A stretch of 6,993 nt of DNA from a virus (Duplodnaviria > Heunggongvirae > Uroviricota > Caudoviricetes): positions 1 to 6,993 of IMG/VR virus record IMGVR_UViG_2675903469_000006; one strand, written 5' to 3'. Every line of letters begins with the position of its first letter. Positions within the stretch are counted from its first letter, which is position 1. Made by a program: the position numbers and the translations under genes. Below, in pieces: positions 1,694-6,993 of the stretch. Below the pieces are notes generated by a model. It was given only the letters and a program-made list of their open reading frames with translations. It was not told the DNA's origin and searched no databases.

Positions 1694-1797
1694 CGATTGG
1701 TGTGCTGGGAAGTCTGCTTCTGGGGCTTCTGACTTATCTGACAAATCTGTATTTCAAAATAAGAGAAGACAAGCGTAAGGCTGCGAGAGGTGAATAA
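1694..1797 (+). pseudogene. S: Class II holin (S21-like pinholin), C-terminal fragment resuming after the gap
   Basis: In-frame translation [33 protein letters not shown] followed by a stop (TAA 1795..1797), matching the S21 C-terminus. The first 85 bp near-duplicate 256..340 with 2 mismatches. Confidence 0.8.
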
Positions 1798-2294
1798 TGT
1801 CGCCATCATTACGCAAGGCTGTTGCAGCTGCTATTGGTGGTGGGGCTGTTGCTATAGCATCTGTGTTAATCACTGGCCCAGGTGGTAACGATGGTCTGGA
1901 AGGTGTCAGCTACATACCATACAAAGATATCATTGGTGTATGGACTGTATGTCACGGACACACCGGAAAAGACATCATGCTCGGTAAAACGTATACCGAA
2001 GCAGAATGCAAAGCCCTCCTGAATAAAGACCTTGCCACTGTCGCCAGACAAATTAACCCGTACATCAAAGTCGATATACCGGAAACAACGCGCGGCGCTC
2101 TTTACTCGTTCGTTTACAACGTGGGCGCTGGCAATTTCAGAACATCGACGCTTCTTCGCAAAATAAACCAGGGCGATATCAAAGGCGCATGTGACCAGCT
2201 ACGTCGCTGGACATATGCTGGCGGTAAGCAATGGAAAGGGCTGATGACCCGTCGTGAGATTGAGCGTGAAGTCTGTTTGTGGGGGCAGCAATGA
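1797..2294 (+). CDS. R: SAR endolysin (phage 21 R21-like lysozyme, glycoside hydrolase family 24)
   Basis: 165-aa ORF whose ATG overlaps the holin stop (TAATG). The Gly/Ala-rich N-terminus [30 protein letters not shown] is typical of a signal-anchor-release domain, followed by lysozyme-like sequence ([11 protein letters not shown]...[12 protein letters not shown]) very similar to R21 as recalled. Confidence 0.93.
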
Positions 2295-2755
2295 GCAGAG
2301 TCACCGCGATTATCTCCGCTCTGGTTATCTGCATCATCGTCTGCCTGTCATGGGCTGTTAATCATTACCGTGATAACGCCATTACCTACAAAGAGCAGCG
2401 CGACAAAAACGCAAGAGAACTGAAGCTGGCGAACGCAACCATTACTGACATGCAGCAGAGACAGCGTGATGTTAATGCACTCGATGCTAAATACACGAAG
2501 GAGTTAGCTGATGCGAAAGCTGAAAATGAAACTCTGCGCGCTGATGTTGCCGCTGGTCGTCGTCGGTTGCACATCAAAGCAGTCTGTCAGTCAGTGCGTG
2601 AAGCCACCACCGCCTCCGGCGTGGATAATGCAACCAGCCCCCGACTGGCAGACACCGCTGAACGGGATTATTTCACCCTCAGAGAGCGGCTGATGACGAT
2701 GCAGATGCAACTGGAAGGGGCACAGGAGTATATCCGCACTCAGTGCATTAAGTAG
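2291..2755 (+). CDS. Rz: Rz inner-membrane spanin (i-spanin)
   Basis: The ATG at 2291 overlaps the endolysin stop (ATGA). The product [60 protein letters not shown]... has an N-terminal transmembrane helix followed by coiled-coil sequence and is near-identical to lambda Rz as recalled. The track's GTG start at 2279 is less likely. Confidence 0.9.
2511..2693 (+). CDS. Rz1: Rz1 outer-membrane lipoprotein spanin (o-spanin), embedded in the +1 frame of Rz
   Basis: 60-aa ORF lying wholly inside Rz in another frame: [60 protein letters not shown]. It has a lipobox (LVVVGC) and a proline-rich stretch, matching lambda Rz1 as recalled. Confidence 0.85.
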
Positions 2756-2797
2756 CCTTTTTATCGTGGTAAACATTTCGCAGGGTATGAGGTATTT

Positions 2798-3148
2798 ATG
2801 CCATCACTAATCCCACGTGCCTGCCGTAAGCGTGGATGTGCAGGTACAACCACAGACAGTTCGGGTTACTGCGATAAACATCGCGGTGAAGGCTGGGTGC
2901 AGCACCAGCGCGGACTGAGCCGCCACCAGCGTGGCTATGGCTCAAAATGGACGGTGATTCGTGCCCGTATTCTGAAGCGCGATAAAGGTCTGTGTCAGTT
3001 GTGTCTGCGTGTCGGTGTGGTGAGCGAGGCGAAAACCGTCGACCACATCATCCCGAAAGCGCATGGCGGAACAGACGCAGACAGCAACCTGCAGAGTCTG
3101 TGCTGGCCCTGCCATAAAGCGAAAACAGCGCGCGAACGAATCCGGTGA
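2798..3148 (+). CDS. HNH endonuclease (phage packaging-associated; HK97 gp74-like position)
   Basis: 116-aa ORF with GAGG (2789..2792) 5 nt upstream of the ATG. It carries HNH and zinc-binding signatures (C-x2-C ... DHIIPKAHGG ... N ... CWPCH) and sits immediately upstream of the terminase small subunit. Confidence 0.85.
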   Translation: MPSLIPRACRKRGCAGTTTDSSGYCDKHRGEGWVQHQRGLSRHQRGYGSKWTVIRARILKRDKGLCQLCLRVGVVSEAKTVDHIIPKAHGGTDADSNLQSLCWPCHKAKTARERIR

Positions 3149-3166
3149 TAATTATTCTCACTTGTA

Positions 3167-3230
3167 GGGAGGGGCGGGGCAAATCCCTGTGACCTGACGT
3201 CTTCCGGACTGCCCGCCCCATCGTTTTTTT
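3167..3230. other. GC-rich inverted repeat followed by a T7 run in the HNH-terS intergenic region; candidate cos/packaging site or terminator-like hairpin
   Basis: GGGGCGGGGCA (3171..3181) pairs with TGCCCGCCCC (3210..3219) with one bulge, across a loop of about 28 nt, followed by ATCG and TTTTTTT (3224..3230). It lies exactly where HK97-like phages place cos. Any function is inference. Confidence 0.4.
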
Positions 3231-3269
3231 ATACCCGCGAAAAATGAAATTTAACCAGGAGTGCCGCAT

Positions 3270-3764
3270 ATGGCTGGAACGGCGGGGCGTTCCGGGCGTC
3301 GCCCCAAGCCAACGGCGCGCAAGGCGCTGGCCGGAAACCCCGGCAAGCGAGCCCTGAACAAAGATGAACCTGTTTTTACGCCCATCAAAGGTGTTGAGCC
3401 ACCAGAGTGGTTCGCTGAAGAAGATCTCCCTCTCGCCACGATCATGTGGCAACTGACAACCAAAGAACTCTGCGGTCAGGGCCTGCTGTGCGTGACTGAC
3501 CTGGCGGTACTTGAGCGGTGGTGCGTGGCCTATGAGTTCTGGCGACGTGCCGTGAAAAATATTGCCATACAGGGCAACACCATCACCGGTGCAATGGGCG
3601 GCAGGGTCAAAAATCCGGAGCTGACCGCCAAAAAAGAACAGGAGTCCGAGATGAGCAGCACGGGGGCAATGCTCGGACTCGACCCCAGCAGCCGCCAGCG
3701 TCTGATTGGCCTGGCGGGGCAGAAGAAAGCCACTAACCCGTTTCTGAAAATTATCGAATCATGA
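3270..3764 (+). CDS. Terminase small subunit (P27 family / Terminase_4-like)
   Basis: AGGAG (3257..3261) lies 8 nt upstream of ATG 3270; the track's GTG at 3261 is too close to that site. [34 protein letters not shown]... contains the GNPGKR motif typical of P27-family small terminases. The stop overlaps the terL start (ATGA). Confidence 0.85.
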
Positions 3765-5494
3765 GCCGGAAATCTTACCCCAACGTAAATGCTGCAAATC
3801 AGTATGCCCGGGATGTCGTGCGCGGAAAGATTGTTGCCTGCCAGTTTGTGATTCAGGCCTGCCAGCGCCATCTTGATGACCTGATGGCGGAAAAAAGTAA
3901 GTCGTTTCGTTACCGCTTCGACAAGGACCTGGCTGAACGGGCCGCGAAATTTATTCAGCTGTTGCCGCACACCAAGGGGGAGTGGGCATTCAAACGGATG
4001 CCCATCACGCTGGAGCCGTGGCAGCTATTTGTGATCTGCTGTGCGTTTGGCTGGGTCAATAAAGGCACCCGGTTGCGCCGCTTCCGGGAGGTGTACACCG
4101 AAATCCCCCGTAAGAACGGCAAATCAGCAATCTCTGCCGGTGTTGCCCTGTATTGTTTTGCCTGTGATAACGAGTTTGGCGCGGAAGTGTATTCCGGTGC
4201 CACGACAGAGAAACAGGCGTGGGAAGTCTTTCGCCCGGCGCGACTGATGTGTAAACGCACACCCATGCTGACGGAAGCGTTCGGGATTGAGGTTAACGCC
4301 TCAAACATGAACCGTCCGGAGGATGGCGCGCGGTTTGAACCGCTGATCGGCAACCCAGGTGATGGTTCATCACCCCACTGTGCCGTGGTTGATGAATATC
4401 ACGAGCATGCCACCGATGCGCTTTATACCACAATGCTTACCGGGATGGGGGCGCGACGTCAGCCACTGATGTGGGCCATCACCACCGCCGGGTACAACAT
4501 TGAGGGGCCGTGCTACGACAAGCGGCGGGAAGTCATCGAGATGCTCAACGGCTCGGTGCCTAACGATGAACTGTTCGGGATCATCTATACCGTTGATGAA
4601 GGTGACGACTGGACCGGCCCGCAGGTGCTGGAAAAAGCCAATCCAAATATTGGCGTGTCGGTTTATCGCGAATTTTTGTTAAGTCAGCAGCAGCGTGCGA
4701 AAAATAACGCCCGTCTGGCAAACGTCTTTAAAACAAAACACCTCAATATCTGGGTGTCGGCGCGTTCGGCGTATTTCAACTTGGTGAGCTGGCAGAGCTG
4801 CGAGGATAAATCACTGACCCTTGAGCAGTTCGAGGGGCAGCCGTGCATTCTGGCCTTTGACCTGGCGCGTAAGCTGGATATGAACAGCATGGCGCGACTT
4901 TATACCCGCGAGATTGACGGTAAAACGCATTACTACAGTGTGGCCCCGCGTTTCTGGGTACCGTATGACACGGTGTACAGCGTCGAGAAAAATGAAGATC
5001 GACGGACAGCCGAACGCTTTCAGAAATGGGTGGAAATGGGCGTTCTGACCGTTACCGATGGTGCGGAGGTGGATTATCGCTACATCCTCGAGGAGGCCAA
5101 AGCGGCGAACAAAATCAGCCCGGTCAGTGAGTCACCCATCGACCCCTTCGGGGCGACCGGGTTGTCACATGACCTTGCTGATGAAGACCTGAATCCCGTC
5201 ACTATCGTCCAGAACTTCACCAATATGTCCGATCCGATGAAAGAGCTGGAAGCAGCGATTGAATCGGGACGTTTTCATCATGACGGCAATCCCATCATGA
5301 CCTGGTGTATCGGCAACGTGGTCGGCAAAAACATGCCGGGTAACGATGATGTGGTGAAACCCGTCAAAGAGCAGGCGGAAAACAAAATCGATGGTGCAGT
5401 TGCGCTGATTATGGCGGTTGGCAGAGCCATGCTGTACGAGAAAGAAGACACGCTGTCTGACCACATTGAGTCCTACGGGATCCGCTCGCTTTAA
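3761..5494 (+). CDS. Terminase large subunit (HK97-like, Terminase_1 family; ATPase plus nuclease)
   Basis: 577-aa ORF translationally coupled to terS, with a Walker A-like motif (IPRKNGKS) and a long conserved C-terminal region. It is the largest ORF in the window and sits in the canonical position. Confidence 0.93.
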
Positions 5495-5505
5495 CTGAGG
5501 TAATT

Positions 5506-5688
5506 ATGATCATGCTGATTCTCGCGCCTCTGGTGGGCGTGCTGGGTGCGCTTTTGCTGGCGTATGGTGCCTGGCTGATTTATCCCCCGGCGGGTTTTGT
5601 TGTTGCCGGGGCGCTGTGCCTGTTCTGGTCGTGGCTGGTGGCGCGATATCTCGACCGTACACGGCAGTCTGTCGGCGGAGGTAAATAG
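5506..5688 (+). CDS. Small hypothetical membrane protein (about 60 aa, two predicted transmembrane helices)
   Basis: GAGG (5497..5500) lies 5 nt upstream of ATG 5506. [60 protein letters not shown] is highly hydrophobic with a basic C-terminus. Its stop TAG overlaps the GTG of the following portal frame (TAGTG). No family assignment possible from sequence alone. Confidence 0.5.
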
Positions 5689-6844
5689 TGTTCTTTTCGG
5701 GATTATTTCAACGAAAAAGCGATGTGCCGGTGACCACGCCAGCAGAACTGCTGATGCTATCGGGCTGTCATACGACACCTATACCGGAAAGCGGATCAGT
5801 AGCCAGCGGGCCATGCGCCTGACGGCGGTCTATTCTTGCGTCAGGGTGCTGGCAGAGTCTGTTGGTATGCTGCCCTGCAGTCTCTACAAAATCAGCGGTA
5901 CCCTGAAAACACGGGCGGTGGATGAACGACTGCATAAGTTGGTTTCGGCAAAACCTAATGGCTACATGACACCGCAGGAATTCTGGGAGCTGGTTATTGT
6001 CTGCCTGTGTCTACGGGGGAATTTTTACGCCTACAAGGTAAAGGCACTGGGAGAAGTGGTGGAGCTTCTTCCGATAGATCCGGGCTGTGTGGAACCGAAG
6101 CTGAACAGCCAGTGGCAGCCGGTTTATCAGGTGACGTTTCCGGATGGTTCCGTGGATGTGTTGACCCAGAATGAAATCTGGCATGTGCGCACCCTGACGC
6201 TGGATGGACTTGTCGGGCTGAATCCCATTGCGTATGCGCGTGAGGCCATTTCACTGGCAGCGGCAACCGAGGAGCACGGTGCCAGGTTGTTTAGTAATGG
6301 TGCGGTGACATCCGGTGTGTTGCGTACGGAACAAAAGCTCACGCCGGATGCTTACGAGCGTCTGAAGAAAGATTTTGAGGAGTGTCACACGGGGCTTGGC
6401 AATGCTCACCGCCCGATGATTCTGGAAATGGGGCTGGACTGGAAGTCGATGGCGCTGAACGCCGAGGACAGTCAGTTCCTGGAAACCCGCAAGTTTCAGC
6501 TGGAAGAAATCTGTCGTCTGTTCCGGGTGCCGTTGCACATGGTGCAGAACACCGATCGCGCCACCTTCAACAATATCGAAGAGCTGGGGCTGGGATTTAT
6601 CAACTATTCACTGGTGCCGTATCTGACCCGCATCGAACAGCGGATCAACACCGGACTGGTACGAAAAAGTAAGCAGGGCGTTTATTACGCCAAATTTAAC
6701 GCCGGGGCGTTACTGCGCGGGGATATGAAGTCCCGTTTTGAAGCCTACGCCACCGGGATCAACTGGGGAATTTACTCTTCCAATGACTGCCGCGACCTGG
6801 AAGATATGAATCCGCGTCCCGGTGGTGTAATGCCGATCAGTTAA
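5688..6844 (+). CDS. Portal protein (HK97 family), apparently frameshifted near the 5' end and 3'-truncated by IS4
   Basis: The long frame (track 5597..6844) carries a portal-like core (AMRLTAVYSCVRVLAESVGMLP ... through the C-terminus). The only convincing start is the GTG at 5688, with GGAGG at 5677..5681, but it is in a different frame: MFFSGLFQRKSDVPVTTPAEL reads on to a stop at 5820..5822. The conserved frame has no plausible start before M at 5813. The last five codons (VMPIS, then stop) are encoded by the putative IS4 end. Confidence 0.8.
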
Positions 6845-6876
6845 GGATCAGTTGACCGATCCAGTGGCTGTGTAAG

Positions 6877-6912
6877 AATCCGGAAACGCTCACTTGTTTC
6901 CGGATTTTTTTA
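6877..6912 (+). terminator. Hairpin plus T-run (rho-independent terminator-like) just upstream of the IS4 transposase start
   Basis: AATCCGGAAAC (6877..6887), loop GCTCACTT, then GTTTCCGGATT (6896..6906) running into TTTTTTT. It may shield the transposase from read-through transcription. Confidence 0.45.
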
Positions 6913-6993
6913 TGCACATTGGACAGGCTCTTGATCTGGTATCCCGTTACGATTCTCTGCGTAACCCACTGACTTCTCTGGGGGATTACCTCG
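6912..6993 (+). CDS. insG: IS4 transposase (InsG-like), N-terminal 27 codons only; runs off the window
   Basis: ATG at 6912; translation MHIGQALDLVSRYDSLRNPLTSLGDYL. Identification is by recalled similarity and needs a database check. Confidence 0.6.
   Translation, partial: MHIGQALDLVSRYDSLRNPLTSLGDYL

Follow-up and report, generated by a model that had tools for sequence, protein, structure and literature searches.

Two predicted inactivating lesions in a relic HK97-family portal gene of a decayed Shigella sonnei prophage

Results

The stretch of DNA that was analysed, referred to as the window, comprises 6,993 nucleotides of IMG/VR virus record IMGVR_UViG_2675903469_000006. Between positions 1797 and 5494 it carries intact ORFs with strong Pfam matches, despite the disruption of the portal gene that follows them and the lack of head and tail genes. 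The features of this first part of the window are given below.

341-1671 (1331 bp): IS3-family element; its ORFs, on the - strand at 352-1257 and 1215-1625, match HTH_Tnp_1 and rve/rve_3
1797-2294: lysozyme, intact ORF, strong Pfam match
2279-2755: Rz, intact ORF, strong Pfam match
2798-3148: HNH endonuclease, intact ORF, strong Pfam match
3261-3764: P27-family small terminase (terS), intact ORF, strong Pfam match
3761-5494: large terminase (terL), 577 aa, intact ORF, strong Pfam match

At the left end of the window codon 66 of a P21-type holin gene (143-340) is followed by the 1331-bp IS3-family element, whose length and terminal sequence resemble those of IS2. The same element, 99.8-100% identical, was observed beyond IS4 in most of the related S. 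sonnei loci. A run of 21 Ns (1673-1693) directly follows the end of the IS element; it is absent from a preliminary description of this DNA, and because of it the window is considered to derive from a scaffolded or masked draft assembly. The IS element and the N gap lie between holin-gene fragments at 133-340 and 1694-1797, which overlap by about 86 bases. Since this overlap contains 2 differences, the fragments originate from two different prophage copies, and what links them is either a rearrangement mediated by the IS or a join made in scaffolding rather than a simple insertion. Additionally, one related locus (L008, CP044191.1) matches the window without differences from 2723 on, whereas its lysozyme and Rz genes (equivalent to 1826-2722) contain a cluster of 80 differences, a distribution that indicates replacement of its lysis cassette by recombination from another lambdoid prophage.

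The portal locus itself contains the following features.

5506..5688, + strand: ymfR, a 60-codon membrane-protein gene immediately 5' of the portal (ORF list and translation)
5677..5681, + strand: GGAGG Shine-Dalgarno sequence, invariant in phiP27, E. coli A36 and ST64B (DNA alignment)
5688..5822, + strand: stump ORF of the portal gene, 44 codons, of which codons 1-21 (5688-5750) are the authentic N-terminus and the next 23 are out of frame, ending in TGA at 5820-5822
5750..5751, + strand: site of the 1-bp deletion, where one G of an ancestral GG is lost in codon 22 (Ala), CTG GCK becoming CTG CT
5750..6827, + strand: rest of the portal coding sequence (codons 22-380 out of about 413), which lies in -1 phase with respect to the start codon (translation)
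5813..6844, + strand: 343-codon ORF reported by gene callers, which starts at the ancestral Met43 and ends in VMPIS and a stop codon read from IS4
6828..6993, + strand: left end of IS4 (TAATGCCGATCAGTTAAGG...), a 100% match to IS4 transposase InsG regions, which cuts the portal after codon 380

The start region of the portal gene was read directly from the sequence. The ymfR gene, whose counterpart in E. coli and phiP27 is annotated as 'protein YmfR' or 'membrane protein', terminates at TAG 5686-5688, and this stop codon is overlapped by the portal GTG in the arrangement TAGTG. The preliminary description had considered the GTG at 5688 to be well placed after GGAGG, and it was indeed found (5688-5690) six bases downstream of a GGAGG at 5677-5681 on the + strand. 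In phiP27 and E. coli A36 the portal is annotated from the same GTG, which overlaps the ymfR stop, and the product is 413 residues long; portals of 413-414 aa with this GTG start are found in the intact relatives.

Translation also confirmed that the GTG frame runs into a stop at 5820..5822 (TGA, after 44 codons) and that the conserved portal frame lies one base out of phase with no credible start of its own, both as previously described. The portal frame, in -1 phase, contains ...ADAIGLSYDTYTGKRISSQRAMRL... and extends to 6844; as the frame one base behind the GTG frame it reads ...ADAIGLSYDTYTGKRISSQRAMRLTAVYSC..., continuing to that same position. It is open from 5579 (the first upstream stop being located at 5576-5578), and 5' of ATG 5813 it holds no start-like codons except three TTGs at 5597-5603, inside ymfR. 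A TTG start at this position, which would open a 415-codon portal-frame ORF, was rejected as it is situated inside ymfR, lacks a ribosome-binding site and would produce an unconserved N-terminus. No Shine-Dalgarno sequence precedes ATG 5813 (upstream sequence GGATCAGTAGCCAGCGGGCC). The exact 44-aa stump peptide was not found in the protein collection, and gene callers do not report the stump.

The position of the shift was defined by aligning window positions 5660-5900 with the corresponding DNA of three intact relatives, phiP27, E. coli A36 and ST64B (245 columns). This alignment contained a single one-base gap, at 5750/5751, and no other indels, the relatives reading GAGCTGGCGGA where the window reads GAACT-GCTGA. 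Similarly, E. coli matches to the deletion region align 102 subject bases per 101 query bases. When the G is put back, the N-terminus becomes MFFSGLFQRKSDVPVTTPAEL followed directly by ADAIGLSYDTYTGK, the two being joined at the deletion site. The proposal that restoring one base near 5748..5753 would generate a plausible N-terminus was thereby substantiated, the gap falling exactly at 5750/5751 and 104 homologues matching the restored N-terminus.

These homologues were obtained in a protein search which returned 875 relatives at E<=1e-100, 104 of them being listed cluster representatives of 395-420 aa from hosts including E. coli, Plesiomonas, Kluyvera, Pantoea, Citrobacter, Serratia, Morganella, Xenorhabdus and others. 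All 104 listed representatives begin with an MFFxGxF-like motif, after which comes ...TTPAELAxxxGLxYDTYTGK in one frame across the deletion site, and the N-terminus is therefore conserved in one frame on both sides of the deletion. The converse situation, in which homologous portals would start at the equivalent of Met 5813 with nothing conserved upstream, does not hold, as these 104 homologues are full length and encoded in one frame.

The restored protein was matched by both family models above their curated cut-offs, which places it in the HK97 family by score: Pfam PF04860 (Phage_portal) aligned to residues 47-373 with 359.2 bits (cut-off 39.1; 2.6e-107) and TIGR01537 (portal_HK97) to residues 39-379 with 263.6 bits (cut-off 112.05; 2.5e-78). 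The solved HK97 portal structure 8cez was matched at E 1.5e-51, in an alignment which begins at query residue 27 and thus upstream of Met43. The phiP27 portal displayed 97.1% identity to residues 1-380 in a single tblastn piece. Furthermore, BLAST analysis of complete E. coli genomes and phage records identified the terL-ymfR-portal arrangement in 1,100 E. coli records and in phages phiP27, ST64B, SfI, SfII and SfIV, with a DNA identity of 87-93.5%.

Compared with phiP27 codon by codon, the restored frame contains 5 synonymous and 1 non-synonymous changes in codons 1-21, and 63 synonymous and 9 non-synonymous changes in codons 22-380, while in the two other frames the changes are nearly all non-synonymous. 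The two segments thus appear to have evolved as one coding sequence until recently. As the substitutions relative to phiP27 are mostly synonymous on either side of the deletion, the locus would be a once functional portal gene that decayed recently, and the surplus of synonymous changes suggests that its inactivation is of recent date.

A programmed -1 ribosomal frameshift, or transcriptional slippage, that joins the two frames would still permit synthesis of the full N-terminus. Given that the portal frame is already open from 5579, a -1 slip anywhere in 5688-5819 would produce the fusion, and a run of five A residues is present at 5714-5718. However, the A5 run also occurs in the intact relatives and is thus not an evolved recoding site, the GTG frame is devoid of any X_XXY_YYZ heptamer between 5688 and 5822, and the intact relatives are all encoded in one frame, with no conservation of a two-frame organisation. 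Since IS4 interrupts the gene anyway and its assembly partners are no longer encoded, the likelihood of such recoding is considered vanishingly small.

The preliminary description had left open whether the base was lost through a genuine inactivating mutation or is missing owing to a sequencing or assembly indel. In the latter case the true gene would be intact at its 5' end, and it may be argued that the window derives from a draft or scaffolded assembly, as indicated by the N run at 1673-1693, and that private indels exist in other assemblies of the same locus. The assembly collection, 1695 blocks of which contain the exact 343-aa product, returned ten chromosome-scale loci (from assemblies of 4.78-5.04 Mb), and in 10/10 of these independent assemblies, which come from different laboratories and include at least one Ion Torrent plus MinION hybrid, window positions 5660-5830 were reproduced base for base. 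Six of the ten are 100% identical to the window over 1694-6993. Moreover, at least 1000 contigs carry the exact 343-aa product, named 'portal protein [Shigella sonnei]', and at least 1000 further contigs a 336-aa version located at the contig end, these being N-truncated calls that start at Met43. The deletion lies in a GG dinucleotide rather than in a long homopolymer. The genuine mutation is the option that stood, and a sequencing or assembly error is regarded as extremely improbable.

The private indels referred to above were encountered in loci L006, L010 and L013, which contain 2-4 private gap openings and 0 mismatches over 5.3 kb elsewhere, the portal deletion being common to all three. 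Private indels without mismatches are the pattern that would be expected of assembly indel errors. Split gene calls for terS or terL were observed in L006, L010 and L013 (locus 5459-7682) as a result of these indels, which are probably long-read assembly errors. With regard to strain identity, GCA_002442535.1 is Shigella sonnei CFSAN030807 (PMC11594029), CP022457 is S. sonnei strain 2015C-3566 (PMC6456863) and CP037997 is S. sonnei FC1653, an Ion Torrent plus MinION assembly with 857 annotated pseudogenes (PMC6836418).

The distribution of the deleted allele was also assessed at the protein level and beyond S. sonnei. Each of the five cluster members that were fetched (P0003, P0004, P0009, P0010 and P0013) begins at Met43 or later, and among the matches listed all named cluster members are from S. 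sonnei, the clusters being defined at 90% identity, such that an intact near-identical allele could sit within the 94%-identity cluster P0016. The deleted allele was not found in complete E. coli genomes, where the best matches are approximately 93% identical, contain one extra base and are annotated as an intact portal; full-length E. coli matches to 5700-5800 have 93.1% identity, and a full-length match in H93 likewise has the one extra base. In the species-representative genome collection no match was obtained to a degenerate pattern allowing the extra G, nor to the exact window sequence, possibly, we assume, because GTDB treats Shigella as part of E. coli and the representative lacks the prophage. 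Every examined sequence with the IS4 junction also carries the 1-bp deletion. With the same lesion in ten of ten independent loci and on at least 1000 contigs, as would be the case for a pseudogene fixed in a lineage, the deletion is concluded to be a genuine mutation present in all or nearly all of the S. sonnei clone.

The 3' end of the portal gene is truncated by IS4 from position 6828, an event absent from the preliminary description. The phiP27 portal extends 33 codons beyond the IS4 junction point, whereas the window has VMPIS, derived from IS4, in their place. In the related loci the portal is followed by Nterm_IS4/DDE_Tnp_1 gene calls, and beyond IS4 lies either an IS3-family element and then bamE-recN-nadK-grpE, or directly raiA-pheA-tyrA. 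No prohead protease, capsid or tail genes were detected downstream of IS4 in any of the ten related loci. In one of the loci (L012, 9016-10441) the far end of IS4 abuts the region upstream of raiA without a repeat of the portal-side target, while an IS3-family element adjoining bamE interrupts the IS4 copy of other strains. As the far end in L012 lacks a repeat of the portal-side target, the late region may have been lost through IS4-associated deletion or recombination, and the IS4 ends imply serial IS-mediated deletions or rearrangements of this part of the prophage. With its late region lost, the prophage is considered to be a remnant, and the portal gene would carry at least two disabling lesions, the frameshift among them.

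The ORF from Met43 retains almost the whole Pfam domain (residues 47-373). A protein initiated at ATG 5813, i.e. the 343-aa product, might accordingly function as an N- and C-terminally shortened portal-like protein, particularly as Met43 is positioned just before this domain, the TIGR01537 match begins at residue 39, and most assemblies have intact ORFs for the neighbouring HNH, terS, terL and lysis genes. Nevertheless, ATG 5813 lacks the Shine-Dalgarno sequence that precedes the GTG, the 42 missing N-terminal residues are conserved in 104 of the 104 listed full-length relatives, the C-terminal 33 residues are replaced by the IS4-derived VMPIS, and the protease, capsid and tail genes are all gone. 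A functional shortened portal is consequently given hardly any credence.

Discussion

The most convincing explanation, held with near certainty, is that the locus represents a relic HK97-family portal gene in a decayed S. sonnei prophage, with two independent inactivating lesions of which the deletion is real and not an assembly error. The prophage would have possessed a packaging module similar to those of phiP27 and ST64B. Loss of a G from the GG in codon 22 would cause translation from GTG 5688 to leave the portal frame and to end after 44 codons, and IS4, inserted from 6828, would have removed the last ~33 codons together with the downstream prohead protease, capsid, connector and tail genes. 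The predicted outcome is that neither a full-length portal nor virions are produced from this prophage, and the frameshift, the truncation by IS4 and the lack of partner genes together suggest that portal function is lost.

A different reading of the genes that remain is that HNH-terS-terL-ymfR, the lysis genes and the portal-domain ORF from Met43 have been kept by selection rather than by clonality, the frameshift having created a new, shorter product. This is thought to be very unlikely; if true, it would point to a domesticated packaging/lysis module, or to a fragment of the portal acting against superinfection by HK97-like phages.

For the preferred reading, a relic gene with two lesions, the features by which HK97-family portals are recognised give a mixed picture: the family models are matched, while the single uninterrupted ORF of about 400-420 codons with a conserved N-terminus is broken twice, in codon 22 by the deletion and beyond codon 380 by IS4. 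As the ORF is interrupted, the locus is classified as a pseudogene derived from a member of the HK97 family and not as a functional member. Nor is the gene located between the large terminase and the prohead protease/major capsid genes, since HNH, terS, terL and ymfR are present and the downstream region is replaced by IS4 and chromosomal genes.

The S. sonnei genome is known for IS expansion and gene decay, and the changes described here are ordinary prophage decay and IS-driven genome erosion, with no new biology implied. Public annotations already name the locus '(partial) phage portal protein'. The consequence for annotation is that one frameshifted, IS4-truncated portal pseudogene should be recorded rather than a 343-aa 'portal protein', and the 1-bp deletion and the IS4 junction could together serve to mark the S. 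sonnei lineage.

With respect to known systems, clear sequence homology exists between the restored protein and the HK97 gp3 portal (PDB 8cez/8fql), TIGR01537 and PF04860. HK97 gp3 is, however, distant at the sequence level and is an expressed portal, whereas the copy in the window is a disrupted pseudogene. A parallel is provided by the e14 element of E. coli K-12, in which the portal pseudogene beeE is located next to ymfR in a defective prophage without late genes, as in the window. The e14 element differs in having other lesions and another host lineage, the combination of 1-bp deletion and IS4 junction being specific to S. sonnei. The phiP27 portal (NP_543090.1, L38) and E. coli prophage portals share with the window the GTG start overlapping the stop of the membrane-protein gene, and phiP27 and the E. 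coli prophages share the upstream order HNH-terS-terL-ymfR. In contrast to the window, where a G is missing in codon 22, IS4 follows codon 380 and no head genes remain, phiP27 possesses an uninterrupted 413-codon gene followed by the prohead protease and capsid genes. The portal of phiP27 is judged to be the closest to the locus, which originates from a bona fide HK97-family portal gene.
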